51,131 nt of DNA. It comes from Actinomycetota bacterium. Its GTDB lineage: Bacteria > Actinomycetota > Thermoleophilia > Gaiellales > F1-60-MAGs149. Positions 5,357-35,119 of the stretch are shown in pieces (the stretch's first letter is position 1; every line of letters starts with the position of its first letter). The stretch is from contig SYIF01000089.1 in NCBI GenBank assembly GCA_005798855.1, positions 1 to 51,131 of the forward strand. Reading direction: 5' to 3'. Under the pieces are notes generated by a model. It saw only the letters and a program-made list of their open reading frames with translations. It was not told where the DNA came from and searched no databases. The translations under genes were made by a program, and so were the position numbers.

Positions 5357-5475
5357 TGTTGACTCCTCTCCGAGCGCATCATCGCGCCCAAGTGAGATGT
5401 CCACCAAACCGGGGCAACTCCACGTCCGCCCGTCGGTTTCCGAAAGTAGTTCGGAGCCACGAACGGTGTACGGCC

Positions 5476-5501
5476 GGAGGGCCCGCTTCGGCGGGCCCTC
5501 C
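5476..5501 (-). terminator. GC-rich stem-loop (11-bp perfect stem, 4-nt loop), candidate terminator downstream of rpsR
   Basis: The sequence is GGAGGGCCCGC-TTCG-GCGGGCCCTCC. It lies 145 nt past the rpsR stop and 54 nt from the IS end. No clear U-tract follows on the minus strand. Confidence 0.5.
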
Positions 5502-5645
5502 GCTTGTTCGTGGCGACGTTCTGGTGGCGCGCGGGTAGGTGATGGCCAGGGCGCGGTCTGGTGTGTGGCTGAATGCGTTTTCCGTGCGCGTGTCTCTAGG
5601 CGCAGGCGAGCGCTGACAGGTCGAACCACTGACCGCGCCGGCGGT

Positions 5646-15167: not shown

Positions 15168-15854
15168 ATGGCCGAGCGCATTCTGATTGTTGAAGACGAG
15201 ATCAACATTGCGACGCCGGTCAAGACGTACCTCGAGAAGGCGGGCTTCGACGTTGATCACGCGCTGACGGGTACCGATGCGTTGCGTCTGATGGAGGCGA
15301 CGCCGCCAAACCTGATTGTCCTGGACCTCAATCTGCCCGATATCGATGGTCTCGAGGTGTGTCGGCGGATTCGCGCTACCTCGCAGGTGCCGATCATCAT
15401 GGTGACGGCGCGCGACGATGATATCGACAAGATTGTTGGTCTCGAGGTTGGTGCAGACGATTATCTGACGAAGCCGTTCAACGTGCGCGAGTTGGTGGCG
15501 CGCGTCAAGGCGATCTTGCGGCGCGCACCGACGACGGCGCAACCGATTAGTGGGGTGTTGTCGCACGGCGGCGTCTCGATCGATCGCGGTCGTCACGAGG
15601 TCTTGCTCAATGGTGAGGTTGTTCAGCTTGCACCCAAGGAGTTCGATCTGCTCTGGACCTTGCTGGAGGAGCGCGGCCATGTGCTGACGCGCGATCAGCT
15701 GCTCGAGCGCGTATGGGGATATACATTTGCGGGCGACACGCGCACGGTGGATGTTCACGTCCGTCAGTTGCGCCGCAAACTTGGTGACGATTGTCCGGTC
15801 GTGACGGTGTGGGGCGTGGGGTACAAGGTCGGCGACGATGTTGCTGCTCCGTAG
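15168..15854 (+). CDS. OmpR-family response regulator
   Basis: The receiver domain reads ILIVEDE...LDLNLPDIDG...DDYLTKPF. A winged-helix output follows (VDVHVRQLRRKL...VWGVGY). Confidence 0.92.
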   Translation: MAERILIVEDEINIATPVKTYLEKAGFDVDHALTGTDALRLMEATPPNLIVLDLNLPDIDGLEVCRRIRATSQVPIIMVTARDDDIDKIVGLEVGADDYLTKPFNVRELVARVKAILRRAPTTAQPISGVLSHGGVSIDRGRHEVLLNGEVVQLAPKEFDLLWTLLEERGHVLTRDQLLERVWGYTFAGDTRTVDVHVRQLRRKLGDDCPVVTVWGVGYKVGDDVAAP

Positions 15855-17445: not shown

Positions 17446-17655
17446 ATGGAAACACTGTGGACGACGATGGTGCGGTTTATGCATCGGCTGACGGATCGGC
17501 GCGGGCAGGGCACGGTTGAGTATCTCGGCCTCGTGCTCGCCGTGGGCGCGCTGCTCCTGGCTGTCTCCGTGCAGGTCAAGGGTGGCGGGGCCGGGATCGG
17601 TGGTCAGATCTCGAAATCGATGGAGAAGGCAATCTCCTCGATCACGCAGCCCTAG
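17446..17655 (+). CDS. flp: Flp-family type IVb prepilin
   Basis: A small ORF with a GAGGT RBS 5 nt upstream. The leader ends ...DRRG, followed by QGTVEYLGLVLAVGALLLAV, which fits the Flp G/xxxxEY processing motif plus a hydrophobic helix. ATG 17467 is an alternative start. Confidence 0.8.
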   Translation: METLWTTMVRFMHRLTDRRGQGTVEYLGLVLAVGALLLAVSVQVKGGGAGIGGQISKSMEKAISSITQP

Positions 17656-18473
17656 TCTCGGCTCGGCTCGGCTGGCCGTTCGTGGCCGGCCGAGTCGACG
17701 CACGGGCTGTCGGTCGAAGAAATCGTGTCGAGGATCAGTTGATCGTTGCGCAGCACGCCGATGCGCCAGGCCTGGCTGCGTGGTAGCGGCGAGTACGTGA
17801 TGTGGTTAGCCGTCAGGAGGACGACGGGGCGGCAGAGGACGATGTCGTCTGCGCGCGTTGCTGGTGGCTGGGGATCAGCACCAGCGGACAGGCCAGCCAG
17901 CAGGTGGATGGCGCTGAGCGCCAGACCGAGTGGTCGTGCGATGCGGCGCGCCACGATACCGGCTCCGCCCCAGCCCAATGCGGTTGCAGCAGCGACGGTG
18001 CGATCTGTCCCAGTCGTTTGACCGGCGGCGTAGAGCGCCTCATCGCTCGCCGTAATGACCCGCAGCGAGATCTCGCCGGCGCCGCGTGCAACGATGCGGC
18101 GCGTGCCAGAGCGGCTCGGCAGAGATCGGATCGTGAGATCGGCCAACCACGACGGGTGGCGCACGGGAAGCAGCGTGACGATCGCGGTACGCAGCTGCTG
18201 ATCCGCTGCGTCTGTGCCGATCGACTCAGCGAGCCAGGCGCGTGCGCCACCCAGAGAAATTGCCCCCGCCCGACCAGACAGTGCTTGGTCGAGCGCGAGC
18301 GTGGCTGCTGGCGGTGGTGTTGCAGTCGTACCGAGTCGATCGGTGATCGTCTGGACGAGATTGGTGTGGACGACGGTTGAGGTAGTCGCCGTCAGGAGCG
18401 CGGCAACGACCAGCAGGATCGTCAGCCATTCCACGCTCGCCTGGCCGCGGCGTGGGTCAGCAGGAGACTGCAT
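17652..18473 (-). CDS. large pilin-like protein with a Flp/TadE-type leader (paralog 2)
   Basis: A GGAG RBS precedes the start. The N-terminus reads MQSPADPRRGQASVEWLTILLVVAALL. It is 273 aa, Ala-rich, and alignable by eye with the upstream paralog. Confidence 0.65.
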   Translation of the reverse strand: MQSPADPRRGQASVEWLTILLVVAALLTATTSTVVHTNLVQTITDRLGTTATPPPAATLALDQALSGRAGAISLGGARAWLAESIGTDAADQQLRTAIVTLLPVRHPSWLADLTIRSLPSRSGTRRIVARGAGEISLRVITASDEALYAAGQTTGTDRTVAAATALGWGGAGIVARRIARPLGLALSAIHLLAGLSAGADPQPPATRADDIVLCRPVVLLTANHITYSPLPRSQAWRIGVLRNDQLILDTISSTDSPCVDSAGHERPAEPSRD

Positions 18474-19287
18474 GGCTCCAGACCAGCTCGTGCTCAATCA
18501 GGTGTCCGGCACGAACGATAGCGATGTCGACTGCGGCGATCGGTGTGCCGAGCCGTAGACGGGTCGCCTCGAGTGGGTGGTGATCGACCCACGTCGCGGT
18601 TGCTTGGTTTGTGCGCCAGACAAAGCGACAGACGATGAAGTCGCCTTCGCGGCTCCCTGCCGGCGTGCCGCGCGTTACGGTCTCGGCGGCGGCGGCTCCA
18701 GCACCAATCACGATCGCAGCCGCGGCCGTCGCAGGATTGATCGAGCTAATCAGACTGACAACGCCAGACGTGCCGAGTTCGATGGCTTTGCTGGTTCCTG
18801 TGGCTGACTGCGAGGCAAGCCAGCGCCGCTCATCGTCCGCGGAGACGAGCCGTAGAGTCCGGGTCGCGCGGGGTGCCTCGTGCGACCACACCCCGCTGGT
18901 GACGCTTAGCCCGACGCCGTTGAACTCTGCTCGGGCGAGCGCCCAGGCCGGGTCGGTGAGAGGGCGCAAGCGACCCGTGGCGGCAGGTGGCGTCGCCGCT
19001 CGCAAGGCGTGCGAGAGAACGAGGGCGCGAGCCTCGGTTGGGCCGATCTCCTGGCCTAATCGTTCGATCGCATCGTTGATCGTTGGGCCCGAACCAGATA
19101 GTGCCGCGTCGACAAAGGCCAGAGCGGCCGGGCTGGCTGTCGGTGGCTCCGAGCGATCGAACACGGACTGGACAGCGGCAACGATGCCACTGGCAGGAAG
19201 CGTTGTCGCACCGATTGCAAGCAGTGCGGCAACACAGCCGACCAGCGCGACGTATTCGACAGTGCTCTGGCCGCGTTGCGATCGCAT
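18457..19287 (-). CDS. large pilin-like protein with a Flp/TadE-type leader (paralog 1)
   Basis: The N-terminus reads MRSQRGQSTVEYVALVGCVAALLAI. It is 276 aa. Its 3' end overlaps the start of paralog 2 by 17 nt. Confidence 0.65.
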   Translation of the reverse strand: MRSQRGQSTVEYVALVGCVAALLAIGATTLPASGIVAAVQSVFDRSEPPTASPAALAFVDAALSGSGPTINDAIERLGQEIGPTEARALVLSHALRAATPPAATGRLRPLTDPAWALARAEFNGVGLSVTSGVWSHEAPRATRTLRLVSADDERRWLASQSATGTSKAIELGTSGVVSLISSINPATAAAAIVIGAGAAAAETVTRGTPAGSREGDFIVCRFVWRTNQATATWVDHHPLEATRLRLGTPIAAVDIAIVRAGHLIEHELVWSHAVSC

Positions 19288-19503: not shown

Positions 19504-19947
19504 CTACACGCTTGGCGGTTGCGTCGACGCGTCAGCGTCGGCGATCCGCTCGAGCTGCGAGCCGACCCGATCGAGTGCCCAGGTAATGCGCTCGAGTTCT
19601 CTTTCGATGCGCTGCGAGCGCGCTTCGAGTCGTGCGACGTCGCCGCGCACGGCACCAAGCCCGTCGACCAGTACATCAACAACAACTTCAAGATCTTCGA
19701 CGCGACCGACGCGCTCGGCGCGAACGTCCGCGGCCAGCGCGCGCGTACGTTGCGCCGTATCGATCGCCAGAGCGTGCAACTCGGCGACACGATGATCAAC
19801 GCCCGTACCTTCGTGCGCATCGAGTGCGCGAGCAACTGCAGCCTCGATCCGCGTTGGCAAGACCGCTCGTAGATCCGCGGCGATCTCCTTGACCTCATCG
19901 ATCTCGGCGGTTAGGTCGGGCTCGTGCTGTGGGGTGTCGTCGGTCAT
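19504..19947 (-). CDS. hypothetical acidic coiled-coil protein
   Basis: 147 aa and helical with a heptad-like pattern. The ATG overlaps the upstream stop (ATGA). Confidence 0.55.
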   Translation of the reverse strand: MTDDTPQHEPDLTAEIDEVKEIAADLRAVLPTRIEAAVARALDAHEGTGVDHRVAELHALAIDTAQRTRALAADVRAERVGRVEDLEVVVDVLVDGLGAVRGDVARLEARSQRIERELERITWALDRVGSQLERIADADASTQPPSV

Positions 19948-20351
19948 GCGCGATCCTCTGGAACGGTGAGTGCGGCGAACGAAGGATGGCCCGCTCCTGG
20001 TAGAGGGTAGCGCCCCGGCTCGATCCGGAAGGCGCCCACGGACTCATCGAATTCGATCTCGACGAGTCCGTGTTTGATGCGATGGTCGAGCCAGGCGGAG
20101 CGGAAGACGAGCTTCCGGAGCCAGTAGATCGGGTCTTCGCCGTCGCGCCCGCAGAGATCGACGAGGAGTTCACCAGTCGGGGAACGGGGCACAGTCAACT
20201 CGCCGTCGATTGCTGCCGCTACGAGATCGGCCTGCGCTGAGCGTGAGAGCGGACGAGTCGCCAACTCGAGTTCGACTGCGGCTCGCAACACGCGTTGCTC
20301 GAAGTCGGCGCGAGCAAACGCATAGGTGCAGCCCAAGAAGGCCAGCGTCAT
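19944..20351 (-). CDS. hypothetical protein (about 135 aa)
   Basis: This is the C-terminal part of the 403-aa track ORF. The upstream part is antisense to the DUF192 gene and is rejected. The start may instead be GTG 20384. Confidence 0.45.
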   Translation of the reverse strand: MTLAFLGCTYAFARADFEQRVLRAAVELELATRPLSRSAQADLVAAAIDGELTVPRSPTGELLVDLCGRDGEDPIYWLRKLVFRSAWLDHRIKHGLVEIEFDESVGAFRIEPGRYPLPGAGHPSFAALTVPEDRA

Positions 20352-20419
20352 GTCGTCACCCGAGTGAAAGTCTGCACAGTCCACGACTGGAGCGTAGCGA
20401 AGCGGTGGTTGCCGAATCG

Positions 20420-20433
20420 AGTGCGCGCGCACT
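20420..20433. promoter_or_regulatory. 14-bp perfect palindrome AGTGCGCGCGCACT in a divergent intergenic region
   Basis: It lies between the divergently oriented 135-aa gene and the DUF192 operon. It is a candidate operator. Confidence 0.3.
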
Positions 20434-20516
20434 GTCGGGCGACTGGTGTGCAACCCGCCGTGATCTCTGCGTCGCCTGCGCGTCCGTGGCGGCGGTGGTT
20501 GAGCAACGGTGCCGAC

Positions 20517-21071
20517 ATGGTTCAACTCTGCGACTACGACTCTGGCGCGGTCCTCGTCCCGACCGTCGAGACGGCTGGCAGTTTCAGTCTCGGCGCTATG
20601 CGAGGACTGATTGGTCGCACCTCGATCGAGCCCGGCGAGGGTCTTTTGCTGCGCGATCCGCTTGGCTGCATCCACACCTTCGGCATGCGCTGCGACATCG
20701 ACATTGTCTTTCTGTCGCGAACACTGCGTGTGCTCGAAGTGGCAGCAAACGTGCCACCTCGACGCCTGCGATGGGCTCGCGGCGGTGTCGTACAACTCGA
20801 GCTTGCTGGTGGGCAGGCAGCCTCCAACGGGCTGGTTCCCGGTCGGCGTCTGATGGTCGTAGAAAGACCGATCGATCAGAGCAGGGGACGGGTTGGGCGT
20901 CGATCTCCACACGCGGAAACCGATGCTGGCAGTCCGTCTCACATTCGCCGAAACGCCGCTTGCGGCAGCGCTGACAACGTGCCTACTGTGCCGTTCTGGC
21001 CTCGTTGGGAGGCACTCCACAACCCCGACGCTCTGCCGTTGGCAGTCGGTGGATCTATACAAAGGAGTTAG
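20517..21071 (+). CDS. DUF192 (COG1430) family protein
   Basis: The core reads GAMRGLIGRTSIEPGEGLLL.....IHTFGMRCDIDIVFLS....L.V, which is typical of DUF192. The C-terminal 60 aa are low-complexity and run into the RBS of the next gene. Confidence 0.7.
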   Translation: MVQLCDYDSGAVLVPTVETAGSFSLGAMRGLIGRTSIEPGEGLLLRDPLGCIHTFGMRCDIDIVFLSRTLRVLEVAANVPPRRLRWARGGVVQLELAGGQAASNGLVPGRRLMVVERPIDQSRGRVGRRSPHAETDAGSPSHIRRNAACGSADNVPTVPFWPRWEALHNPDALPLAVGGSIQRS

Positions 21072-21074
21072 AAG

Positions 21075-21764
21075 ATGTGCGCAAGCCTGCTCGTAGTTGA
21101 GGACGACGAGATGATCTCGGAGTTCCTGGTCGACAATCTGCGACAAGACGGTCACGCAGTGACCGTCGTCGAAACCGTCACGGACGCTCTCGTCGCGTTA
21201 CGTCGCACCCGCACCGAGATCGCGCTGATCGATGTCTCCCTGCCAGACGGTTCGGGTCTCGACGTCGTTCGCATGATTCGCTCTGGCGAGGCCGGGGCAT
21301 CCGACATTGGTGTGGTCGTTGTCAGTGGACGCTGCACCGAGCAAGATCGAATCCGCGCGTTCGAGCGCGGAGTGGATGACTACATCGTGAAGCCCTTCAG
21401 CTATCCAGAGTTGCTGCTTCGAACGGCATCGTTGGAATCACGACTTAGTGGACGCGTGGCTTCGGTCCTGACGGTTGGCTCGCTGACGATGGATCTTGCG
21501 GCCCGCGCCGTCACCCTCGATGGCGTGCTCATCCATCTGCCCGGCAAGGAGTACGAGCTGCTCACCGTCCTCGCGCGCGATCCCAACAAGGTCAACATGA
21601 AAGAAGATCTGATGGAGCGCATCTGGGGATATCGAAACTGCGGGACGCGGACCCTCGATTCGCACGCCTCGCGGCTACGGCGACGACTGACCGCTGTTGC
21701 TGACGGTCCCTGGGTAATCAACAACTGGAGCGTTGGGTACTCGCTGCGAACCGTGCTGCAATGA
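21075..21764 (+). CDS. OmpR-family response regulator
   Basis: An AAAGGAG RBS precedes the start. Receiver motifs are LLVVEDDE, ALIDVSLPDGSG and DDYIVKPF. A winged-helix output follows (LDSHASRLRRRL...VGY). Confidence 0.9.
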   Translation: MCASLLVVEDDEMISEFLVDNLRQDGHAVTVVETVTDALVALRRTRTEIALIDVSLPDGSGLDVVRMIRSGEAGASDIGVVVVSGRCTEQDRIRAFERGVDDYIVKPFSYPELLLRTASLESRLSGRVASVLTVGSLTMDLAARAVTLDGVLIHLPGKEYELLTVLARDPNKVNMKEDLMERIWGYRNCGTRTLDSHASRLRRRLTAVADGPWVINNWSVGYSLRTVLQ

Positions 21765-22948
21765 CTCGTCTCTGGCTCCGCATCACGATCGCAACCGTCG
21801 CGATCGTGGCAACTTTGGTGGTTGCGGTCGATACCTTCGTGATCGGGCCGGCTGCAGACCAGTCCGCGCGTGCCGCTGCGACTGCGGCCTCGACCGAGGC
21901 GACCTTGGTGGCTCAACTCGTGCGTCGAGGAGGAGCGCCGCCGAGCGACGCGGTCGTGCACACGGGACGCACGCGCGCGGAGGCTGCGGTCGGGAGCGCT
22001 CCGATCGGTGACGGGCGCTTCGTGCAGGTGCCACTCCGAGATCAGGGTGCACTCGTCGAGGCGCTCTGGCGAGGCCTTCTGTTCGTAATCGGAACAGGAG
22101 CCCTGGCCGGGGCAGGATGGGCGCTGTGGATTGGAGTAGTGCGTGCACGTGACCTCGAGAACGTCTGTCGAGCGTTGCGAGAAATGGGCGGAGCTGAGTC
22201 TGCTGCGGTCATGCCGGGAGAAACTGCGTCGATCGAGCATCTTGCTCGCGTCGTCGACGAACTCCGAGTAACACTGGCTCAGCAGATGCTTTCGCAGGCC
22301 GAACTCGTCGGCATCATGGCGCACGATTTACGCAGCCCACTGACGGGAATCTGTCTGGCGGGCGATTGGTTGGAACGATCGCAGAGCAGTGCGGAGCGTG
22401 CGCGAGCGCGGGGCCAGATCCAGCGAGAGTGCGATCGGCTGGCAGCAATTGCCGACGACGTGTTGCAACTGTGCAGAGACGCGCACTCCAACACCACCAA
22501 TACGCAGCACGGGGTGGCAGCCGATCAACTGTTGCTCGATGTCGTCGATCGACTTCGCAGCGGCGGCTCTGGGTCCCAACAGGTCCACGTTGCGTCTGTC
22601 CTCTCCACCGCAGCGTGTGTCGACTCGAGCATCGCTCGTGCAGTCGCAAACCTCGCCGAGAATGCCGCCCGCTATGCACCCGCAGGTACGCAGGTATCGC
22701 TCGCTGTGAGGCAGACCGAAGCGGGCACAGTTGAGTTTGTCATTGAGGATGAAGGTCCCGGATTTGCGCCGGAGTTGCTGGAGCGTGCGTTTGCACAGGG
22801 TCGCACGTCACCGGGCCGTGCGGGACTCGGACTCTCGAGCGTGCGACGAGTCGTCGCAGCAGCGGGCGGAGCATCGCAGCTAGAGCGTCACCACGGCCGT
22901 GGAACGCGCGTCGTGCTTCAGGTGCCCCAACTGGACCGGAGCCTGTGA
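21761..22948 (+). CDS. sensor histidine kinase
   Basis: It has an ATGA overlap with the response regulator gene. It has two TM segments, an H-box AHDLRSPLTGI, an N-box NLAENAARYAP, and G-boxes EDEGPGF and GLGLS. Confidence 0.88.
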   Translation: MTRLWLRITIATVAIVATLVVAVDTFVIGPAADQSARAAATAASTEATLVAQLVRRGGAPPSDAVVHTGRTRAEAAVGSAPIGDGRFVQVPLRDQGALVEALWRGLLFVIGTGALAGAGWALWIGVVRARDLENVCRALREMGGAESAAVMPGETASIEHLARVVDELRVTLAQQMLSQAELVGIMAHDLRSPLTGICLAGDWLERSQSSAERARARGQIQRECDRLAAIADDVLQLCRDAHSNTTNTQHGVAADQLLLDVVDRLRSGGSGSQQVHVASVLSTAACVDSSIARAVANLAENAARYAPAGTQVSLAVRQTEAGTVEFVIEDEGPGFAPELLERAFAQGRTSPGRAGLGLSSVRRVVAAAGGASQLERHHGRGTRVVLQVPQLDRSL

Positions 22949-23652
22949 TGGCGGTTGCCGAAGCCGACTACGAAACGCGGTCGCTGCCAGCAGCGCTCGA
23001 ACGCAGCCATTCTTCCGGACGCTCGGTGGTGCTCGTCGGTGCGCACGGTGGAGCGGGAACGTCCACAGCCGCGCTGGCCATCGCGAGCGATGCGGATCGG
23101 GGCGTATGCCTGATCGACGCGGATCTGGCGGGCGGAACGCTCGGGATGATCCTCGGTATCGGCAATCGGATTGGGGATGCCGGCCTTGCCGCGGTACGTG
23201 AGGGCGAGGGCAACGCCTTTTCGACACTCGCGCAACGGGTGCCGTTTGGTTGGTTCGTTGAAATCGGTCCGCGTCCCGAGCTCGTCTGGTTGATTCGAGA
23301 TGGCGCGTTACGAGAGCTGACGAGGCAGGCGATGCGTCAGGTCGCCCTGATCGTGGTCGACGTAGCTCGCCCAGTTGGACCATCCTGCGAGCCGGTCGTT
23401 GACGCGGACGTGATTGTCATCGTCGGACATGCCAATCGTTTCGACGCCATCGAGCGGACGCAGCAGCGACTCGTACGGCTGGGTGTCGATGCCGCCCGGA
23501 TCGTGTTGTGCCCAACCGCGCCCACCATTGTCGAGCGCACAGTTGGGCGGCTTCGAGGGAGCCAGACTTGCATCGACGTGCGCCACGGCGACGAGCTACT
23601 GCTCCTCGTCGAGGGGCGGCTCGCCGCACTCGGCCCAAGGGAGCGCGGATGA
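22945..23652 (+). CDS. tadZ: TadZ/CpaE/Ssd-like ParA-MinD family protein with a degenerate Walker A
   Basis: VVLVGAHGGAGTSTAALA sits in place of KGGxGK[ST], followed by CLIDADL. The start (GTG 22945 or ATG 22948) overlaps the histidine kinase stop. Confidence 0.7.
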   Translation: MMAVAEADYETRSLPAALERSHSSGRSVVLVGAHGGAGTSTAALAIASDADRGVCLIDADLAGGTLGMILGIGNRIGDAGLAAVREGEGNAFSTLAQRVPFGWFVEIGPRPELVWLIRDGALRELTRQAMRQVALIVVDVARPVGPSCEPVVDADVIVIVGHANRFDAIERTQQRLVRLGVDAARIVLCPTAPTIVERTVGRLRGSQTCIDVRHGDELLLLVEGRLAALGPRERG

Positions 23653-24590
23653 CCTCGCTGCTGTCGTTGGCCGGCCCCTTGGCACCGCTCCTGATGAACC
23701 CCCAGGTGGGTGAGGTTGTCGTCAACGGCCCGTTCGATGTCTGGGTCGAGCTGGATGGCCAGTTGCGCCGTGTCGACACACGCTTTCGCGATTCGCTCGA
23801 GTTGCGGCAGACGGCAGTCAGATTGGTGGCTGCCTGTGGGCGACGAATTGACGACGCAACGCCGATGGTCGATGCTCGCCTGCCGGACGGTTCGCGCGTC
23901 AACGTCGTCTTGCCACCACTCGCGGTTGACGGGCCACTGATCACAATCCGTCGCTTCGGCACGGCACCGCTGCGATTCAGCGACCTCGTCGAGCGTGGCT
24001 CGATCTCAGCCGAGCAGGCGATCGATCTGACCATGCTTGTGGAGAGTCGCCGCAACACGCTCATCAGCGGAGGGACGGGTACCGGTAAGACGACGTTGCT
24101 TGCTGCGCTGACCGGTTTGGTGCCAACAAATGAACGCCTCGTAACGGTCGAAGATGCCGCCGAGTTATCAGTCCAAGCGGAACACGTGGCGCGATTGGAG
24201 GCGCGGCCAGCCAACGTGGAGGGGAAGGGCGCGATCGAGCTACGTCAGCTGATCCGGAACGCACTGCGGATGCGACCAGATCGGCTGATCGTCGGAGAAA
24301 TTCGTGGGGGCGAGGCAATCGACCTGTTGCTTGCGATGAACACGGGCCATAATGGCTCGCTCGCCACGATCCATGCCAATGGCCCAGAGGACGCATTACG
24401 TCGACTCGAGACGATGGCGCTGATGGGTGGCGTCGATATTCCGCACACCGCAATCCGTGAGCAGATTGCCTCGGCGGTGCACGCGGTGGTTCACGTCGTG
24501 CGATCCCCCGACGGAACCCGCTACATTGCATCCGTCGACCGCGTTGAGCGCGCGGGCGTCGGCTGGCACCTCCAGGCGGTCGAGCGATGA
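23649..24590 (+). CDS. tadA: TadA/CpaF secretion ATPase
   Basis: Motifs: Walker A GGTGTGKTT, VTVEDAAEL, RMRPDRLIVGEIRG.EA, and His box NTGH.GSLATIHAN. It has an ATGA overlap with tadZ. Confidence 0.92.
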   Translation: MTSLLSLAGPLAPLLMNPQVGEVVVNGPFDVWVELDGQLRRVDTRFRDSLELRQTAVRLVAACGRRIDDATPMVDARLPDGSRVNVVLPPLAVDGPLITIRRFGTAPLRFSDLVERGSISAEQAIDLTMLVESRRNTLISGGTGTGKTTLLAALTGLVPTNERLVTVEDAAELSVQAEHVARLEARPANVEGKGAIELRQLIRNALRMRPDRLIVGEIRGGEAIDLLLAMNTGHNGSLATIHANGPEDALRRLETMALMGGVDIPHTAIREQIASAVHAVVHVVRSPDGTRYIASVDRVERAGVGWHLQAVER

Positions 24591-25150
24591 GGCGCCTCCG
24601 ACGGAGCGACCCAACGGTGAGCCTACTTGCCCGGTCGCTGCCGGAGATAGCACGGGCGCTAGCTCGCTGCTGTGCTGCGGGGCTCCCAATCGCGGACGCC
24701 TTTGATCGCGCAGCCGACGCAGTGGACGAGGTCGCCGTGGACCTGCTCCGTGCCTGTGCGGCCGGTCTCCGTTCGGGTGCTGCAACACGTAGCGCCCTCG
24801 CGCCACTGCTACCTGTCCCCGGCGGCAGCGTGTTGGTGGGAACGATCGAACTGCATCAGGAACTCGGCGGCGACCTCGTGGCATCGCTCGCGGCCGTCGC
24901 CGAGGGGCTTGCCGATCGCGAGCGTCTCCGCCTCGAAGCCGAGGTCGCCACTGCGCAGGCCAGACTGGCGGCGCGGATCGTGCCACTCGCGCCCGTGGTC
25001 TCACTCGGATTTCTCGGCGTGCTGGCGCCATCCGCGCTCGCTGCGCTGTTTACGACCGCTCCGGGACTTGGAATACTCGGAGTCTCCACAGGTCTGACCT
25101 GCGTGGCACTGTTTTTGCTTCGCCGCATCGCACGGGCGGTGGGGTTATGA
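24587..25150 (+). CDS. tadB: TadB-like platform protein (single T2SSF domain)
   Basis: 187 aa with a T2SSF-like pattern (P..L..L...L.AG..........G.......ELGG.L...L) and C-terminal TM helices. It has an ATGA overlap with the upstream gene. Confidence 0.75.
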   Translation: MRRLRRSDPTVSLLARSLPEIARALARCCAAGLPIADAFDRAADAVDEVAVDLLRACAAGLRSGAATRSALAPLLPVPGGSVLVGTIELHQELGGDLVASLAAVAEGLADRERLRLEAEVATAQARLAARIVPLAPVVSLGFLGVLAPSALAALFTTAPGLGILGVSTGLTCVALFLLRRIARAVGL

Positions 25151-25773
25151 CGACACCCCCACGACGGGCCGCTTCGATCGCGTGGCTGGCTGGCTGGGGT
25201 AGCGTCGGTCTCTGGCTGTGTTGGCTCGTGACTGGCAGTCTGGTCATGGCGGTAATCGGCGGCCTCGGCGGCTGTGGTGCAGCGGTCGTTTTGACTCGCC
25301 GCCGGCGCCGCGCTCTGCGGAGGCTGCAGGCCGAAAAAATCACGGCGGCCCTGCCCGACGTGTTCGAGTTGCTCGCAGCCACGGTCGATGGTGGTGCCGC
25401 TCCCGACCTGGCCGTCAAGCGGGTCGCGGCGTTCGCGACAGAACCGCTCCGTAGCATGCTCGTCGGGGCCATCCAGGCGGCAGCCGGGATTGGTCTCGGC
25501 GCGGCGTTTCGTGCGTCTCACCCTGCATTGCGACCACTGGGATCCTTGTTCCAGCAGAGCGAAGAACTGGGCGTCCCGATTGCCGGCGCACTGCGCCTAC
25601 TGGCCGCCGATGCGCGACTTCAGGCCCGGGCGGCGGCGCGAGAGCGTGCAGCCGCGGCCGCACCAAAGATGCTGCTCGTGATCGGTGGGTTGCTGGCACC
25701 GGCAGCACTGCTGATCGTGATTGGCGGCCAGGCGCTGGTGCTTCGAACCCTGATCGGTCCGGTGGTTGGCTGA
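25147..25773 (+). CDS. tadC: TadC-like platform protein (single T2SSF domain)
   Basis: 208 aa with N-terminal TM helices. It has LPDVFELLAATVDGG, SEELGVPIAGALR and a terminal TM helix. It has an ATGA overlap with the upstream gene. Confidence 0.75.
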   Translation: MTTPPRRAASIAWLAGWGSVGLWLCWLVTGSLVMAVIGGLGGCGAAVVLTRRRRRALRRLQAEKITAALPDVFELLAATVDGGAAPDLAVKRVAAFATEPLRSMLVGAIQAAAGIGLGAAFRASHPALRPLGSLFQQSEELGVPIAGALRLLAADARLQARAAARERAAAAAPKMLLVIGGLLAPAALLIVIGGQALVLRTLIGPVVG

Positions 25774-26468
25774 TGCTCGCGGGACGGAGAGGGCAGGCAA
25801 CCACCGAGTGGATCGCGATGCTGATGGCATGTACCGTGCTCGCCACGGTGGGCTTGAAGTTCGCGAATGCCCGTCTCGTGACCATGCCGCCGCTCTCGCC
25901 GATGATGGCAGAGATCGGTCAGCAGTCCACGCGGCAGAGCGACGCTCTGGGAGCGGCGCAATTTTTCGGTTTCTTTCCGGTCGCATCCCTACCACACATC
26001 GAGGGGAACTCGATCGTCGCAATCGCCGAGCGCCTAGAGCGGCTACGCATCGTGGAGGTGCCATTCGGCTCGAATACCGGCCCGGGGATCATCGACTTTA
26101 CCGACGGCAATGTCGAGGCGTGGTGTGCCGATTTCGTCTCCTGGGTGTTGCGAGCTGCAGGACGACCATTCACCGGTGGTGCGTCTGGTGGCTGGCGGTT
26201 GGCATGGACGCTCGATGTGCGGAGCTGGTTCGCCGAGCGGGGTGCATTTCGCGACCGGCTCGTCGCCGACCCACAGCCAGGCGACGTTGTCTGGTTCACG
26301 TTCGGCCACGTTGGCATCGTGCGACGAGCTACGCCAACAACGATCGACACGATTGAAGGCAACTCGGCCAACGCTGTCAGTGCACACACCTATGAGAACT
26401 GGCGGCTCAATTCGAACATCGGCGGATTTGGGCGTCCTATCGGCGACAACACGTCCGCGGGGTACTGA
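25773..26468 (+). CDS. CHAP-domain peptidoglycan hydrolase with an Flp/TadE-type N-terminal leader
   Basis: The N-terminus is MLAGRRGQATTEWIAMLMACTVLA. The CHAP catalytic pattern is WCADFVSWVL ... GDVVWF.FGHVGIV ... TIEGNS. The start overlaps the tadC stop (TGATG). Confidence 0.75.
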   Translation: MLAGRRGQATTEWIAMLMACTVLATVGLKFANARLVTMPPLSPMMAEIGQQSTRQSDALGAAQFFGFFPVASLPHIEGNSIVAIAERLERLRIVEVPFGSNTGPGIIDFTDGNVEAWCADFVSWVLRAAGRPFTGGASGGWRLAWTLDVRSWFAERGAFRDRLVADPQPGDVVWFTFGHVGIVRRATPTTIDTIEGNSANAVSAHTYENWRLNSNIGGFGRPIGDNTSAGY

Positions 26469-26526: not shown

Positions 26527-27675
26527 GTGCGCCGTCGTCTTGTGACCCTATGTGCGGTCGTTGCCATCGCAGCGATTGCCGTCCCAGTTGCTGCTGCGCG
26601 CAGTATGGCTCCGCGCGCCGACACGCTGACGCTCGCCTTTGAAGGCCCCTTGACGGGTGGCCAGGCCGCTAATGGGCAAGACATGTTGCGGGGCACCAAG
26701 CTCGCCATTGCCGAGATCAACAAGGCTGGCGGCGTGCTTGGGATGCAGATCAAGCTGATCACCGGCAACGACAAGGCAACGGCGTCGATTGGGGTAACCG
26801 TCGCCGAGAACCTCGTCAAGCAGAAGCCATTTGGACTGATTGGACCTTACAACTCGTCCGTCGGCCTCGCCAACCTGCCGATCTACATCGCTGGTGGCGT
26901 GTTTCCCGTCCAGCTCACCTCGACCGATGACACTAAGAACTTGGGCATCACAGTGCAGCCGAAGAACTCTCAGATCTCGCCCGTCGAGGTCCAGTGGATG
27001 ACCGAGCAAAAAGCCGGCAAAGTCTCGATCCTGTTCGATCCTGACACCTACACCAAGGGCATGGCGGACCGCATGTTCGCGGCGCTCAACAAAAAGGGTG
27101 TGCTGGTGACGAAAATCGCCATCGATCCCAAGAGCAAGGACTACAGCGCGCAAGTCGCGCAGGCCGTGACAAACAATCCTGATGTCGTCTACGTCAGCAC
27201 CTACTACCCCGAGGGCGCCATCATCGCCAAGAACCTACTCGCATCGCAGGCCGGCCATCCGACCAAGTGCTTCATGGGCCTCGCCAACCAAGACGCGGTG
27301 TTCGTAGAGCAAGCCGGTATTCCGGCAGCATCGGCCTGCACGTTTAGTGGCGTGCCGACGCCAAGCCAGTTTGGCAATTCCAAGTCGACGGCGTACGTCT
27401 CAAACTACGCCAAAAAGTTCAACACCAACCCAGGCCCGTGGGGGATCTTCACGTACGACTCGGTCTACACGATGGTCAGCGCGATTCGACGTGCGCGTGG
27501 CCTCAGTTACCGCGCCGTTTCAAAGCAGGCCTTTCACACCACGAATCTCTCCGGCGCAACGGGTAGAATCACGATCGATCCGAAGACTGGATACCGCTCG
27601 AACGTCCCCGTCGCGATCCTGAACGTAGACGCGACGACCGGCAAGTTCGTACTCAGCAAGCTCTACACGAAGTAG
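26527..27675 (+). CDS. ABC transporter substrate-binding protein, Leu/Ile/Val-binding (LivJ-like) family
   Basis: The GTG start is followed by a signal peptide (VRRRLVTLCAVVAIAAIAVPVAAA). Family motifs follow: G.LTG..A..G.....G..LAI.EIN.AGGVLG....L...D. No permease or ATPase genes are adjacent. Confidence 0.8.
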   Translation: MRRRLVTLCAVVAIAAIAVPVAAARSMAPRADTLTLAFEGPLTGGQAANGQDMLRGTKLAIAEINKAGGVLGMQIKLITGNDKATASIGVTVAENLVKQKPFGLIGPYNSSVGLANLPIYIAGGVFPVQLTSTDDTKNLGITVQPKNSQISPVEVQWMTEQKAGKVSILFDPDTYTKGMADRMFAALNKKGVLVTKIAIDPKSKDYSAQVAQAVTNNPDVVYVSTYYPEGAIIAKNLLASQAGHPTKCFMGLANQDAVFVEQAGIPAASACTFSGVPTPSQFGNSKSTAYVSNYAKKFNTNPGPWGIFTYDSVYTMVSAIRRARGLSYRAVSKQAFHTTNLSGATGRITIDPKTGYRSNVPVAILNVDATTGKFVLSKLYTK

Positions 27676-27773
27676 TGGGAATGCCAGCGGCGCATCGTTC
27701 GTCTATGAGATAGACGGGCGACGCGCCCGGCATACTCTTCACTATCACAGCTTTGCCCCAGAAGGAGCACCAC

Positions 27774-28106
27774 ATGTCCGATGCACTCGAGATCAACAGC
27801 GCCAACTTCCAGGGCGAAGTCATCGAATCTGACATCCCCGTCCTGATCGACTTCTGGGCCGAGTGGTGTGGGCCGTGCAAGGCGTTGTCGCCGATCATCG
27901 ACGAGCTCGCTGGCGAGTACGCAGGCAAGATCAAGATCGCCAAGCTCGACGTTGATGCCGAGCCCGGCCTAGCCGGCCAGTACGGCGTCCTCTCGATTCC
28001 GATGGTTGCGCTGTTCAAGGACGGCGAGGTCGTCGAGCGATCCGTCGGTCTGAAGCCCAAGGATCGGCTCGTTGCCGATCTCAACCTCAGCACGCATTCC
28101 GCCTAG
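27774..28106 (+). CDS. trxA: thioredoxin
   Basis: The WCGPC active site is present, with a GAAGGAG RBS. The ORF is 110 aa. Confidence 0.93.
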   Translation: MSDALEINSANFQGEVIESDIPVLIDFWAEWCGPCKALSPIIDELAGEYAGKIKIAKLDVDAEPGLAGQYGVLSIPMVALFKDGEVVERSVGLKPKDRLVADLNLSTHSA

Positions 28107-31533: not shown

Positions 31534-31968
31534 ATGCTGCTTGGTGAATACGCTCAGAAGCTCGATGAGAAGAACCGCGTGACGGTTCCTGCTCGTCTGC
31601 GTGAGCCATTCGCCGACGGCCTGTTCGTCACGCGAGGCCTTGATCACTGCGTCGCGATCTACGCCCGTGACGGCTGGGAAAGCTTTGTTGAAGCGCAGAC
31701 CTCGCGACTCGATCCGTTTACCCGCGAAGGCCGCCAGCTCGAGCGTTTCCTCTTCGGTGGCGCTGTCGAAGCCGAGCTCGACCGGCAGGGACGCGTCGCA
31801 CTACCCGCTCCACTCATGCAGCACGCCGTGCTCCAGCGCGAGATCGTCGTCGTTGGTGTTCGTGATCGACTCGAAATTTGGGATCGCGTGGCCTGGGAAC
31901 GTGGCCTCGCCGACTTGGAAGGCAGTGCCGAAAATGTCGCCGAGCGCCTGGTCCGTGATGCCCGCTAA
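31534..31968 (+). CDS. mraZ: transcriptional regulator MraZ
   Basis: The N-terminus reads G......LD.KNRV.VPA..R. There are two SpoVT/AbrB-like halves, and it is the first gene of the dcw cluster. Confidence 0.93.
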   Translation: MLLGEYAQKLDEKNRVTVPARLREPFADGLFVTRGLDHCVAIYARDGWESFVEAQTSRLDPFTREGRQLERFLFGGAVEAELDRQGRVALPAPLMQHAVLQREIVVVGVRDRLEIWDRVAWERGLADLEGSAENVAERLVRDAR

Positions 31969-32929
31969 CGCCGCAATCCATGATCCCGTGCTCGCGCACG
32001 AAGTCGTGGCTCTGCTCGACGTGCAGCCCGGCATGACCGTCGTCGACGGCACCTTTGGTGCTGGTGGACACGCCACAATGCTGGCTGAATTGATGCAGGG
32101 GCGTGGGGCCTACGTCGCGATCGATCGCGACCCCTCGGTCGAGAACCGGGCCCGCTCGTTTCGCGCCTCGCATCCCGATATGGCGGTGCGGCTCCTCAAG
32201 CGCGATTTCGTCGAGGCCTTCCGCTCGCTCGCCGTTGAGAACGTCGAAGCCGATGCGATCCTGCTCGACCTTGGCGTCTCCTCGATGCAAATCGACCAGC
32301 CTGAGCGCGGCTTCTCCTACGCCGTCGATGCGCCGCTCGACATGCGTATGGATCCCCGTGGGGGCGCCACCGCCGCCGACCTGCTGGCCAACCTCTCGGA
32401 GCGCGAGCTCGCCGACATGTTCTCGCGCTACGGCGAAGAGCGCTATTCGCGACAGATTGCTCGCGCCATCTGCCGTCGCCGCATGTCGCAGCCCTACGAG
32501 CGCAGCGCCGACCTCGTCGATACGATCCGCCACGCGATTCCGACGCCCGCACAGTTTGGCTCGGGGCACCCCGCCAAGCGCGTCTTTCAGGCACTTCGCA
32601 TCGCCGTTAACGACGAGCTTGCGATGGTCGAAGACGGTCTCGATGCGGCCATGCAGATCCTCAAGCCTGGCGGCCGCATCGCTGTCATTTCGTTCCATTC
32701 GCTCGAGGATCGGATCGCCAAAGAGCGGTTCCGTGATGCCTCTGCACCGTGCACGTGCGCGCCTGATCTTCCGATCTGCGGGTGCAATCGTGAGGCCACG
32801 CTGCGTGTCTTGACGCCTCGGGTGATTCGTCCGGGCTCGTTCGAAACTGACCGTAATCCTCGCGCCGCTTCGGCGCGCCTACGCGTCGCAGAACGAACCG
32901 CTGCCGCCCTACCGAAGGACGCTGCCTGA
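31958..32929 (+). CDS. rsmH: 16S rRNA (cytosine1402-N4)-methyltransferase RsmH
   Basis: Motifs: H.PVL..E........G...VD.TFGAGGH, LLDLGVSS.Q.D...RGFS, SFHSLEDR.K. Confidence 0.92.
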   Translation: MPANAAIHDPVLAHEVVALLDVQPGMTVVDGTFGAGGHATMLAELMQGRGAYVAIDRDPSVENRARSFRASHPDMAVRLLKRDFVEAFRSLAVENVEADAILLDLGVSSMQIDQPERGFSYAVDAPLDMRMDPRGGATAADLLANLSERELADMFSRYGEERYSRQIARAICRRRMSQPYERSADLVDTIRHAIPTPAQFGSGHPAKRVFQALRIAVNDELAMVEDGLDAAMQILKPGGRIAVISFHSLEDRIAKERFRDASAPCTCAPDLPICGCNREATLRVLTPRVIRPGSFETDRNPRAASARLRVAERTAAALPKDAA

Positions 32930-33354
32930 TGGCCGTTGCCGTTCCGCGCCCAACCACTGCGCCACCGCGGCCACGCCGCAAGCCCGCCCCACGCCCCATC
33001 GACGCTGCCAAAGCAGCACCGCGACGTCGAGCAGCGACGCGTCGCACACGCGCCACGCGAGCCTCCGTCAACGGACGGCTCGCGCCTTTTAAGATCGCAA
33101 CGATGATCGCGCTTATTGGTGTTGTGCTCTCCCTCGTGGTCTATCTCCATGCCTCGTCCCTCCGCGGCACGATGCAGGCTGGTGAGTTGCGCACCCAGAT
33201 TGAAGCCACCCAGAACGACGCCGTAAGCATCCAGGCTGAAACTGAACAGCGGCTTGCAGATGGTCGCGTCGAGCGGGCCGCTGCGGCCTTCGGCATGGTG
33301 CTCGTGCCGTCGCAGGCCATGCGAACGCTACCGATTAGAATTCCGAAGGATTAG
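32929..33354 (+). CDS. ftsL: cell division protein FtsL-like (basic N-terminus, one TM, coiled coil)
   Basis: Its position is between rsmH and ftsI. It has a single TM helix followed by a helical region. It has a TGATG overlap with rsmH. Confidence 0.7.
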   Translation: MAVAVPRPTTAPPRPRRKPAPRPIDAAKAAPRRRAATRRTRATRASVNGRLAPFKIATMIALIGVVLSLVVYLHASSLRGTMQAGELRTQIEATQNDAVSIQAETEQRLADGRVERAAAAFGMVLVPSQAMRTLPIRIPKD

Positions 33355-33367
33355 CAGACTCACTCAC

Positions 33368-35119
33368 GTGTCCACGCGCTCTGCTCCCCCTCGGACGCCG
33401 CGTCGCTCGACACGTCAGCGTCCGATTCCCCCGCCGGAGCGACGAATCCGCTGGTTGTTGGTAGCAGCCGTGCTGTTGCTCGTGATCTGCCTTGGACGTG
33501 CCGTGCAGATGCAGGTGGTCGACGGTAGCTGGTACTCCACGCGGGCAACTGGTCAGCACCGCGTTGAGATCGTCACCACCGCGCCTCGTGGCGCGATCCT
33601 CGACCGAGACGGGTATCGCCTTGCACTCACGGAACAGGCCAGCACAATCGGCGCCACGACGGCGATGATTACCGACCCTGCCCGGGTGGTGGCAGCGGTC
33701 GCTGAAGCCAGCGGCGAATCGCCCGACACGATCATGCAGCGGCTCCAAGCGGACGGTTCTGCGCACGTTGACCTTGCGCGCCAGGTACCAGCAGCCGCCG
33801 CCAAGCGCGTACAGGCGATGGGTATCGAGGGTCTCGATTTCACACCGGAAGACCGACGCGTCTACCCCAGTGCTATCGCTGCTCCCGTGATTGGCGTGAC
33901 TGATCTCGAAGGCAAGGGACTCGCCGGGCTCGAGCTGCAGTACGACAAGATCTTGCGCGGCACCAGCGGCCTCGAAGTACGGACTGAAGATCCGGCCGGT
34001 AACGCCATCAACGTGATTAGCCAGCAGGCGATGCGCCCGGGGCACACGATTAGCACTGGGATCGACCGTCAGGTCCAGATCGAAGCCGAGAGTGTGACGG
34101 CGCAGACGCGTACGGCATACCGCGCGAAGGCCGTGACTGCCATCGTGATGGATCCGACGACCGGCGAAATCCTCGCGATGGCATCCGGACCTGCACCCGC
34201 GGAAGGTGACTTCCGACAGGCGACGGCGGATCAGGTTCGCCTCCGTGCCATCACCGACGTCTACGAGCCGGGTTCGACCTTTAAGGCGGTCACGCTTGGT
34301 GCCGGGCTCGCAACGGGGCGCATCTCGCCAGCGACTACCGTCGATGTCGGCTCCGAATGGCAGCTGTACGACGGGATTTTGCGGGATTCGCACCCAGATC
34401 CGGGTGTCAAGACAGCGGCCGAGGCACTGCGAATGTCGTCCAACATTGGCGTTGCCAAACTTGCCTACGAGCACCTGTCGACGTCGGGAGCGCACGACAG
34501 CGTCTTGGCAAAGTGGATCGACCGATTCGGCTTTGGCGCGCCAACCGGTATCGACCTACCGGGCGAAGTGGCAGGCATCGTGCCGGCCTACAAGGATTGG
34601 TCAGGCACGTCGCCATTGAACATTCCGATTGGGCACGGCATCGCCACAACACCAATTCAGATTGCTCAGCTCTACGCCACGATCGCCAACGGTGGCCTGC
34701 AAACGACGCCTCATCTTGTGACACGCATTCACGGGCAAGGCCCGGTTGGGCTCCAGCAGCAGCGAGTCATGCCGGCTCGAGCGGCAAAAACGCTTGCGAG
34801 GATGCTCGAGGGTGTTGTCTCGGATCAAGGAACGGGCACGGCGGCACAGATCCCGGGCTACTCCGTGGCGGGCAAGACCGGTACCACGAAGAAGATCGAC
34901 AAAGACGGCACGTACTCCGACAACCGCTACCTCGCCTGGTTCGTCGGTTTCGCGCCGGTTAAGAATCCACGAGTATTGACGCTGATCATGGTCGACCAAC
35001 CGCGCGGTGGGCAGTACTACGGTGGCGAAGTTGCCGGACCGGCGTTCGCGAAACTGACCGAGCGAGCCCTGATCGCGCTTGGCGTACAGCAGGATCGCCC
35101 CGACACCGCAGCGGAGTAG
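33368..35119 (+). CDS. ftsI: penicillin-binding protein, class B transpeptidase (FtsI)
   Basis: A TM helix is followed by a PBP dimerisation region, then the STFK, SSN and KTGT motifs. The start is GTG 33368. Confidence 0.9.
   Translation: MSTRSAPPRTPRRSTRQRPIPPPERRIRWLLVAAVLLLVICLGRAVQMQVVDGSWYSTRATGQHRVEIVTTAPRGAILDRDGYRLALTEQASTIGATTAMITDPARVVAAVAEASGESPDTIMQRLQADGSAHVDLARQVPAAAAKRVQAMGIEGLDFTPEDRRVYPSAIAAPVIGVTDLEGKGLAGLELQYDKILRGTSGLEVRTEDPAGNAINVISQQAMRPGHTISTGIDRQVQIEAESVTAQTRTAYRAKAVTAIVMDPTTGEILAMASGPAPAEGDFRQATADQVRLRAITDVYEPGSTFKAVTLGAGLATGRISPATTVDVGSEWQLYDGILRDSHPDPGVKTAAEALRMSSNIGVAKLAYEHLSTSGAHDSVLAKWIDRFGFGAPTGIDLPGEVAGIVPAYKDWSGTSPLNIPIGHGIATTPIQIAQLYATIANGGLQTTPHLVTRIHGQGPVGLQQQRVMPARAAKTLARMLEGVVSDQGTGTAAQIPGYSVAGKTGTTKKIDKDGTYSDNRYLAWFVGFAPVKNPRVLTLIMVDQPRGGQYYGGEVAGPAFAKLTERALIALGVQQDRPDTAAE

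Follow-up and report, generated by a model that had tools for sequence, protein, structure and literature searches.

A CHAP-domain protein with a Flp-type prepilin leader, encoded at the end of a tad operon in uncultured Thermoleophilia, is a candidate wall hydrolase for pilus passage

Machine-dedicated peptidoglycan hydrolases form a class that includes VirB1, TraG/PrgK, EssH, FlgJ and similar enzymes, and the wall hydrolases of Gram-positive conjugative type IV secretion systems (T4SS) include TraG (pIP501), PrgK (pCF10), CwlT (ICEBs1) and TcpG (pCW3). A VirB1-89K-type hydrolase is described for the T4SS of Streptococcus suis (PMC3974602), and EssH is described as a CHAP peptidoglycan hydrolase dedicated to a monoderm envelope-crossing machine, the type VIIb secretion system (T7SSb) of Staphylococcus aureus (PMC13059805). 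Among modular type IV pilins, Streptococcus sanguinis PilB carries a vWA module and PilC a lectin module, and fusions to S74 and M26 peptidases have been predicted (PMC8179133). The minimal Tad machine of monoderm bacteria comprises a pilin, a pair of minor pilins, a peptidase, two platform proteins, an ATPase and TadZ/TadG, with no wall enzyme (PMC6916266). How type IV pili cross the thick monoderm wall was described as open in the same 2019 review, which speculates on an extra PilO domain (PMC6916266). Here we describe a tad locus in a stretch of 51,131 nucleotides (the window; contig SYIF01000089.1 of assembly GCA_005798855.1, from an Actinomycetota bacterium of the Gaiellales, class Thermoleophilia), in which a gene at 25773..26468 on the + strand encodes a protein of 231 amino acids, designated the CHAP protein, that joins a pilin-type leader to a CHAP domain. 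We propose that this protein may be a wall hydrolase dedicated to the Tad machine.

The gene was delimited by its Pfam CHAP match, its homologues and synteny, and is the last conserved gene of the operon. The catalytic domain spans residues 79-225 (26007..26447, + strand), as judged from the Pfam match, invariant columns, predicted local distance difference test (pLDDT) values and Foldseek. PF05257 (CHAP) matched residues 112-197 with an E value of 3.2e-11 and 44 bits against a gathering cut-off of 26, and the match covered profile positions 3-81 of 81. No variation was seen at residues C118, H179, E195, G196 and N197 among 33 aligned homologues with identities of 41-85%. The corresponding catalytic codons, all on the + strand, are Cys118 at 26124-26126, His179 at 26307-26309, Glu195 at 26355-26357 and Asn197 at 26361-26363. 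The resulting spacing, Cys-61-His-16-Glu-x-Asn with a Cys-to-His distance of 60-63 across the family, is close to that of CHAPk of phage K, in which the roles of Cys54, His117, Glu134 and Asn136 are backed by mutagenesis (PMC4126393).

An AlphaFold2 (AF2) model built on the alignment had a pLDDT above 90 across residues 79-225. The best Foldseek matches in the PDB, at a probability of 0.9-1.0, were CHAP lysins (Ly7917, PlyGRCS, the phi812 hub and PlyC; entries 5d74, 8xyf, 9eum and 4f88) and NlpC/P60 proteins (Spr/MepS and Acd24020; entries 2k1g, 7cfl and 8xup), and the modelled fold is of the papain-like alpha+beta type. A preliminary description of this DNA, made from the sequence, had read CHAP motifs in WCADFVSW, GHVGIV and TIEGNS and had proposed a search with the CHAP hidden Markov model and an alignment of the catalytic residues. 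The motifs lie where it placed them and contain Cys118, His179 and Glu195/Asn197, respectively, and both checks came out in its favour, with a score above cut-off, the Cys/His/Glu(+Asn) set kept and a fold like that of CHAP and NlpC/P60 proteins. When the family sequence profile was searched against all PDB chains, the sole return was spurious (E 0.97). Membership in TIGR02594 (NCBIfam) was rejected at 29 bits against a cut-off of 70.55; the protein is related to that family and is not a member of it. By profile match, catalytic residues and modelled fold, the C-terminal domain belongs to the CHAP family and has an intact catalytic set, and a peptidoglycan hydrolase is predicted.

The CHAP protein begins with MLAGRRG/QATTEWIAMLMACTVLATVGL, where the slash here and below marks the predicted cut. 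Alignments predicted that a prepilin peptidase cuts after Gly7, which defines a leader peptide of residues M1-G7 (MLAGRRG; 25773..25793, + strand) and places Glu12 at +5 of the predicted mature protein. Residues 8-36 consist of QATTEW and a hydrophobic helix of the pilin alpha-1N type (25794..25880, + strand; identified by AF2, alignment and BLASTP), and residues 37-78 form a poorly conserved linker rich in Pro, Ala, Gly, Ser and Thr (25881..26006, + strand; pLDDT 54-72). In the AF2 model, a helix spans residues 6-36 (pLDDT about 92); a second helix, short and of low confidence, comes next (42-55), and a disordered stretch separates it from the CHAP domain. Across the family, G7 and Q8 were invariant and E12 was kept in at least 90% of members, while the rest of the helix and the linker varied. 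The leader had a median length of 7 residues, and the linker measured 21-45 residues (median 41) with a median P/A/G/S/T content of 56%.

The short basic leader ending in Gly, the Glu at +5 and the run of about 20 hydrophobic residues are those of a class III signal. Across 15 loci, G, Q, A/S, T and E were kept while third codon positions varied (GGG/GGA/GGC/GGT, CAG/CAA, GAG/GAA), indicating that the leader is translated and under selection. The sequence of the N-terminus has the features that define a Flp-type prepilin. A twin-arginine translocation (Tat) signal was also considered and was rejected, since the RR pair is not conserved and is replaced by RQ, RS, RH or SR in homologues.

The same leader was found on the pilin-type proteins of the locus. 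All six frames of the window were scanned for a composite motif consisting of R/K within 6 residues, G-x4-[ED] and a 16-residue hydrophobic run in an open frame. Its four occurrences in the whole 51-kb window all fell inside the tad locus, on the Flp pilin, the CHAP protein and two large pilin-like proteins. The chance expectation, taken from 100 first-order Markov simulations of equal dinucleotide content, was a mean of 0.09 matches, and 0 when Gln was required at +1. BLASTP aligned the N-terminus of the CHAP protein with that of a neighbouring pilin-like protein over RRGQA[ST].EW (E 3e-5), and the leader was common to the CHAP protein and its pilin-like neighbours in seven other loci as well. 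In one clade, an aromatic residue at +6 is missing from the large pilin-like proteins and from the CHAP protein alike, while the Flp pilin keeps Tyr. This joint loss of the aromatic residue suggests that the CHAP leader tracks the minor-pilin-like proteins. According to the preliminary description, GQATTEW occurs in the CHAP protein and the Flp pilin alike; the two do have a motif class in common, R-G-Q-x-x-x-E-[YW], but differ in the exact string, as the Flp pilin reads RRG/QGTVEY.

The Flp-type major pilin candidate (MVRFMHRLTDRRG/QGTVEY; 50 amino acids when mature) is encoded at 17467..17655 on the + strand and was identified by the motif scans, its orthologues and a weak PF04021 match. The two large pilin-like proteins, both putative minor pilins, are encoded on the - strand at 17652..18473 (MQSPADPRRG/QASVEW, about 264 amino acids when mature, identified by the motif and a weak PF04021 match) and at 18457..19287 (MRSQRG/QSTVEY, about 271 amino acids, identified by the motif and a weak Flp_Fap match). 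They are paralogues, about 28% identical to each other, and neither has a Pfam domain; the Pfam matches among the pilin-type neighbours were below threshold (PF04021, E 0.09; PF04964, E 0.046). A profile of the leader, built mostly from CHAP N-termini, retrieved Flp-type pilins of 55-79 residues (RRGQGTVEY, RRGQATVEY) with E values down to 1e-7. These included near-identical Flp orthologues, two proteins named Flp at source, one with PF04021 and one with PF14029; the retrieval is partly circular because two Flp sequences are in the profile. This leader-only search scored the 8000 candidates with the most shared words and returned among those 8000 small Flp pilins alone, not even the CHAP family; it bears out the type of leader and gives no inventory of other fusions.

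Further features of the pilin-type genes were observed. The large pilin-like proteins are far bigger than the classical TadE/TadF pseudopilins, and the related loci L003, L004, L022, L025 and L027 encode counterparts that bear this leader as well. The Flp-like pilin is extremely conserved, with 98.7% identity in L006 and a near-identical mature sequence in the metagenomic P0256, P0262, P0271 and P0276; divergence is much faster in TadC and in the CHAP protein. Between the stop codon of the Flp pilin gene and the end of the pilin-like gene convergent with it there is an overlap of 4 nt.

The CHAP gene closes a tight series of mostly overlapping genes. Its ATG (25773-25775) has one base in common with the TGA (25771-25773) of the gene at 25147..25773, so that the junction reads GGC TGATG CTC. 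That gene (+ strand) encodes a TadC-like platform protein, the second of two T2SSF paralogues (PF00482, E 5.4e-9), and is preceded by the gene for a TadB-like platform protein, the first paralogue (24587..25150, + strand; PF00482, E 2e-12). A TadA-type secretion ATPase is encoded at about 23643..24590 on the + strand (T2SSE, 198.7 bits; TIGR03819, 350 bits against a cut-off of 373); its open reading frame (ORF) as listed opens at 23508, and the start that aligns with relatives from residue 1 is at about 23643. Further upstream on the same strand are genes for a CpaE/TadZ/Ssd-like P-loop protein (22945..23652; TIGR03815, E 1.8e-10 and 40.5 bits, below the cut-off of 154, in a conserved position), a histidine kinase (21761..22948) and an OmpR-type response regulator (21075..21764), which heads the operon. 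The two regulatory genes were identified from the ORF calls, Pfam families on orthologues and the conserved order, and their ends are included in the overlapping series. The TadA/CpaF-type ATPase and the two tandem PF00482 platform paralogues identify the system as Tad; the small Flp pilin and the pseudopilins with the same leader were recognised by their motif and by no curated model.

The overlap of the start codon with the tadC stop suggests translational coupling, and the gene arrangement makes synthesis of the CHAP protein alongside the platform proteins probable. The preliminary description had noted this overlap, which is the one-base overlap with the second T2SSF/TadC-like gene, and had placed the CHAP gene last in the tad operon; the latter assignment is borne out by the gene 3' of it, which varies among relatives. 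In the window this is an ABC substrate-binding protein gene (26527..27675), followed by a thioredoxin gene, and in relatives it is a hypothetical gene (L001) or thioredoxin (L004). A scan for promoters and terminators gave counts no higher than background.

The thioredoxin gene (27753-28106, + strand) was found downstream of the CHAP gene in almost every relative, at 66-97% identity. It is directly 3' of the CHAP gene in some relatives such as L004, and in the clade of the window the inserted substrate-binding protein gene intervenes. CHAP enzymes require a reduced cysteine; the adjacency of thioredoxin probably reflects housekeeping synteny.

A protein search returned 154 CHAP relatives, about 70 of them full-length at 200-240 residues, and the few that were named were called Gaiellales. 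The order response regulator, histidine kinase, CpaE, TadA, TadB, TadC, CHAP protein was present in 26 of 26 loci, all of Thermoleophilia/Gaiellales type, in which the contig extends upstream of the CHAP gene; three of these are contig duplicates or nearly so. Lakes and soils are the main sources of the metagenome-assembled genomes (MAGs) that represent the uncultured hosts; the MAGs bear labels such as Thermoleophilia, Gaiellales and Actinomycetota. Over the 26 loci, identity of the CHAP protein fell from 88% to 39% in step with that of TadA, from 97% to 61%. The preliminary description had made its idea depend on conservation of the gene next to tadC, and the gene directly follows tadC in relatives over this whole range of 39-88% identity. 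Since the Thermoleophilia loci were found through the CHAP protein itself, the co-occurrence within the class carries ascertainment bias.

Two controls addressed specificity. None of 56 loci encoding leaderless CHAP proteins (from Nocardia, Mycobacterium, Saccharibacteria and others) had tadA, tadB or tadC within 10 kb, and no CHAP homologue lay within 8 kb in any of 76 Tad loci of other phyla, among the TadA matches listed (mostly from Acidobacteriota and other phyla). When 1.84 billion representatives were searched exhaustively with a profile, 13,231 CHAP relatives were retrieved. Those aligning from the leader formed only about 10 clusters at 50% identity, all with RGQ..[VT]E; the others were C-terminal CHAP domains of proteins of about 400 residues or small proteins whose N-terminus is an ordinary signal or transmembrane anchor. 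The nearest of these relatives carried lysozyme-like, glucosaminidase or peptidoglycan-binding modules (PF18013, PF01832, PF01471). The leader-CHAP architecture is confined, as far as seen, to uncultured actinobacteria of Thermoleophilia/Gaiellales type. In the 26 loci and by the specificity controls, the hydrolase gene is encoded inside the cluster of the machine and co-inherited with it, as for a machine-dedicated hydrolase. The remark in the preliminary description that such a protein is not a standard Tad component agrees with the result for the 76 loci of other phyla and with the literature searched, in which we found no paper that joins Tad, Flp or prepilin with CHAP or a cell-wall hydrolase; one paper holds all of the terms but mentions them separately.

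One of the family members that align from the leader, P0172, is a single ORF that joins a TadC-like C-terminus (containing LLAPAALLVIVGGEALAF) to an RGQASVEAV leader and a CHAP domain with an Arg-rich tail. The joined ORF is most likely due to a frameshift or an assembly error; it again shows the adjacency of tadC and the CHAP gene.

We favour, at a rough probability of 0.55, the reading that a Tad (type IVc, Flp) pilus machine of monoderm type has in the CHAP protein its own dedicated wall hydrolase, which would be directed to the Tad platform or the pilus tip in the way of a minor pilin and would open the peptidoglycan to let the pilus through. The protein would insert in a prepilin-like manner, N-in/C-out, and its leader would be cut after Gly7 by a Flp/TadV-type prepilin peptidase encoded elsewhere in the genome. 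The pilin-type alpha-1N helix would take the protein into the pilin pool at the TadB/TadC platform, where pilins leave the membrane. It could then remain tethered in the membrane beside the machine, or it could be taken up with the two large pilin-like proteins, as minor pilins, into a priming complex at the pilus tip. With its length of about 40 residues, the linker would let the CHAP domain reach the wall, and the tethered domain would cleave peptide stems or cross-links solely where the pilus emerges, making a passage for the filament. The preliminary description had proposed that an enzyme anchored next to the machine or delivered by it opens the peptidoglycan for pilus passage; all of the observations are consistent with that proposal, which we likewise infer. 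The conserved Glu at +5 leans towards real pilin-like interactions. In a version that we consider possible but doubtful, the CHAP protein would be a true bimodular Flp-type pilin, polymerised with both large pilin-like proteins in the tip priming complex, and the pilus would drill the wall from inside; the walls of other cells might become a later target of an enzyme at such a drilling tip.

Several results weigh against a wall hydrolase dedicated to the Tad machine. Residues 1-63 of the CHAP protein gave no Pfam match at E values up to 10, with the pilin and leader models PF04964 Flp_Fap, PF07811 TadE, PF13400 Tad, PF04021 Class_IIIsignal and PF14029 DUF4244 considered. As the defining prepilin features are present but curated models failed and processing is predicted from sequence features, we describe the protein as pilin-like and not as a pilin. 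It has no globular pilin head, a feature that Flp pilins likewise lack, and the Pfam scan found in it no wall-binding module (SH3b, LysM, PG_binding). CHAP domains may act as amidases or endopeptidases or on non-wall substrates. A gene for lumazine synthase, on the opposite strand, is inserted between the TadC and CHAP genes in one lineage, and in one distant member of the family no TadC is encoded in the 246 nt that lie upstream of the CHAP gene; the contigs of the most distant members are at most 1.1 kb long. The region is also conserved in chromosomal synteny near the dcw cell-division cluster, which leaves room for a general role in wall growth or division.

The prepilin peptidase is a further point on that side and the main missing piece. 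Neither the window nor the 20-kb loci of relatives yielded an A24 prepilin peptidase gene in a search for the GxGD[VAI]K motif and small polytopic ORFs and with Pfam on 39 window proteins plus N-terminal fragments, and leader cleavage is thus without contextual support. Prepilin leaders are cut at the cytoplasmic face of the membrane; the CHAP protein was also considered as a substitute prepilin peptidase and was rejected on topology. The peptidase gene also has a separate locus in monoderm Tad systems, that of Bifidobacterium breve being one example (PMC6916266).

The alternatives differ in where the enzyme would act and whether its N-terminus has any role in the pilus. It is unlikely, in our estimate, that the CHAP protein is a minor pilin in the Tad filament that displays its CHAP domain outward, against other cells and not the cell's own wall, either to lyse neighbours or prey for DNA or nutrients or to anchor the pilus to foreign peptidoglycan. 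Pilins use Glu at +5 for subunit-subunit contacts in filaments, and the retention of this residue in at least 90% of the family would fit such a role, as would the N-terminal 55 residues (helix, turn and short helix), which are about the size of a whole Flp pilin. Modular pilins with functional modules, including predicted peptidases, are on record (PMC8179133), and in Micrococcus luteus, an actinobacterium, natural transformation is mediated by Tad pili (PMC6916266), making lysis combined with DNA uptake plausible. Yet the protein has no wall-targeting domain (SH3b, LysM, PG_binding) of the kind that lytic weapons usually have, no immunity gene is adjacent (the downstream genes are variable and housekeeping in nature), and helix 42-55 and the linker are poorly conserved and modelled with low confidence.

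The R-G-Q-x-x-x-E motif bears most directly on a decidedly improbable explanation, that the protein is an ordinary membrane-anchored autolysin for growth or division, located by chance between tad and dcw, with its N-terminus serving as a signal anchor. The motif is invariant or nearly so while the transmembrane core varies, and it is otherwise found only on the pilin-type proteins of the locus; a plain anchor needs no such motif. The start codon, moreover, overlaps the tadC stop, and the leader-bearing members with enough contig all adjoin tadC, as against none of the 56 leaderless relatives near tad genes. On the side of an autolysin, the tad operon, thioredoxin, glycoside hydrolase, mraZ/rsmH, penicillin-binding protein and Mur ligase genes are syntenic across the class, and the position next to tad could be inherited; wall hydrolases with a simple N-terminal anchor are numerous among CHAP relatives, and the N-terminus of this one matches no curated pilin model. 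We regard it as very improbable indeed that the domain is a cysteine peptidase or transpeptidase that acts on pilus proteins (pilin trimming or wall linking) or on another amide substrate. The CHAP and NlpC/P60 folds are known to include non-wall amidases and acyltransferases, and no prepilin peptidase was found in the locus, but the nearest sequence relatives are fused to lysozyme-like, glucosaminidase or peptidoglycan-binding modules, the nearest structural relatives are wall hydrolases, and the CHAP domain is predicted to lie outside the membrane whereas leader cleavage takes place at the cytoplasmic face.

Other genes surround the tad operon. A second pair of genes for an OmpR-type response regulator and a HAMP/HisKA kinase (15168-17319, + strand) lies immediately 5' of the Flp pilin gene, and the locus is thus flanked by two two-component systems, this pair and the one that heads the operon. 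A DUF192 (PF02643) gene is located just 5' of the operon-heading response regulator gene in the window (about 20550-21071, + strand) and in two distant relatives (L003 3195-3572, L004 1944-2288), and may belong to the conserved locus. Between the pilin-like genes and the operon, 19504-19947 on the - strand encodes an acidic protein of 147 amino acids, probably a coiled coil and with no Pfam match, that is 80-98% identical in closer relatives and could be detected in nearly every locus; it may regulate the system or be a component of it that has escaped recognition. Long antisense ORFs overlie confirmed genes (DUF192, the response regulator and the kinase), with 403 amino acids at 19944-21155 (- strand) and 307 amino acids at 21401-22324, and were taken as artefacts of the high G+C content.

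The dcw cluster lies a few kb 3' of the tad operon, an arrangement that is conserved across the class and also present in the downstream parts of L001, L003 and L004. Its members in the window, on the + strand, are RsmH/MraW (31601-32929), a penicillin-binding protein (33254-35119) and two polytopic membrane proteins (37984-39045 and 40372-41631). The window also contains an insertion sequence, an IS3-like transposase pair at 4197-5806 (- strand) with HTH_Tnp_1 followed by an rve integrase core. The closest relative of the window, L006/L087 (CAMAWJ010000004.1), is from a lake MAG, with TadA 97% and the CHAP protein 88% identical, and is labelled 'Bifidobacterium breve'; another relative, L012 (CAZPQP010000077.1), is labelled 'uncultured Bifidobacterium sp.'. 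These labels look wrong, because gene content and similarity group L006/L087 and L012 with Thermoleophilia/Gaiellales MAGs.

The leader-CHAP gene is a concrete, conserved candidate for the passage of a type IV filament through the monoderm wall, and makes that question directly testable. Should the proposed function be correct, the CHAP protein would represent a new class of component for Tad systems and would extend the idea of modular pilins to Flp-type pilins and to enzymes. It would also provide a compact design for the delivery of proteins to type IV filament machines, in which a leader and helix are followed by a linker and then a cargo. If the pilus drills with an enzyme at its tip, the CHAP protein would be the first type IVc pilin to bear an enzyme, and its action would directly explain how the wall is crossed. 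The hosts are uncultured freshwater and soil Thermoleophilia, and the gene hints at the surface biology of a poorly known actinobacterial class.

Comparison with described systems places the CHAP protein between two groups, the hydrolases of envelope-spanning machines and the proteins that carry pilin-type leaders. EssH uses an ordinary secretion signal and not a pilin-type leader. Like the CHAP protein, it is a CHAP wall hydrolase encoded with its machine, and the function proposed here is the same; unlike the CHAP protein, it serves a T7SS and not a type IV filament, and the likeness is drawn on the CHAP fold alone. The T4SS hydrolases are similarly encoded with their machines, are often membrane-anchored and often have a CHAP domain, and the nearest CHAP relatives outside the family, at about 400 amino acids with a lysozyme-like or phage-lysozyme2 module, have the architecture typical of these enzymes. 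T4SS hydrolases, however, have a plain transmembrane anchor or signal peptide and usually a second glycosidase domain, whereas the CHAP protein has a lone CHAP domain, a Flp-type leader and a place in a tad operon.

Among proteins with pilin-type leaders, TadE and TadF have leaders of the Flp type and TadG has a vWA-like domain; to our knowledge, none of the three has an enzymatic wall-hydrolase domain. They resemble the CHAP protein as non-Flp proteins of the tad locus that carry the Flp-type G/XXXXE[YF] leader. They are processed by TadV and are needed for pilus biogenesis (PMC6916266). The Pfam TadE and Tad models gave no match to the CHAP protein. In archaea, class III signal peptides are also found on proteins that are not pilins, such as the sugar-binding proteins of the Sulfolobus bindosome, and the PF04021 motif is QXSXEXXXL. 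These archaeal proteins are like the CHAP protein in being non-filament proteins with a pilin-type signal and Gln at +1 and in using a small TadA/TadC-like assembly system; they differ in belonging to another domain of life and in having binding-protein cargo, and the PF04021 matches at the present locus are sub-threshold.

The modular type IV pilins likewise carry a functional module behind a class III signal peptide and an alpha-1N helix. They are of type IVa, with the IPR012902 motif and a globular pilin module, whereas the CHAP protein has a Flp/type IVc leader with Gln at +1, no globular head and a wall hydrolase as its cargo, and the three supplementary text files of the modular-pilin survey contain no CHAP or NlpC architecture (PMC8179133). 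By analogy with these systems, and in a combination for which we found no published precedent, the CHAP protein appears to work like a machine-dedicated wall hydrolase and to be built like a modular pilin.

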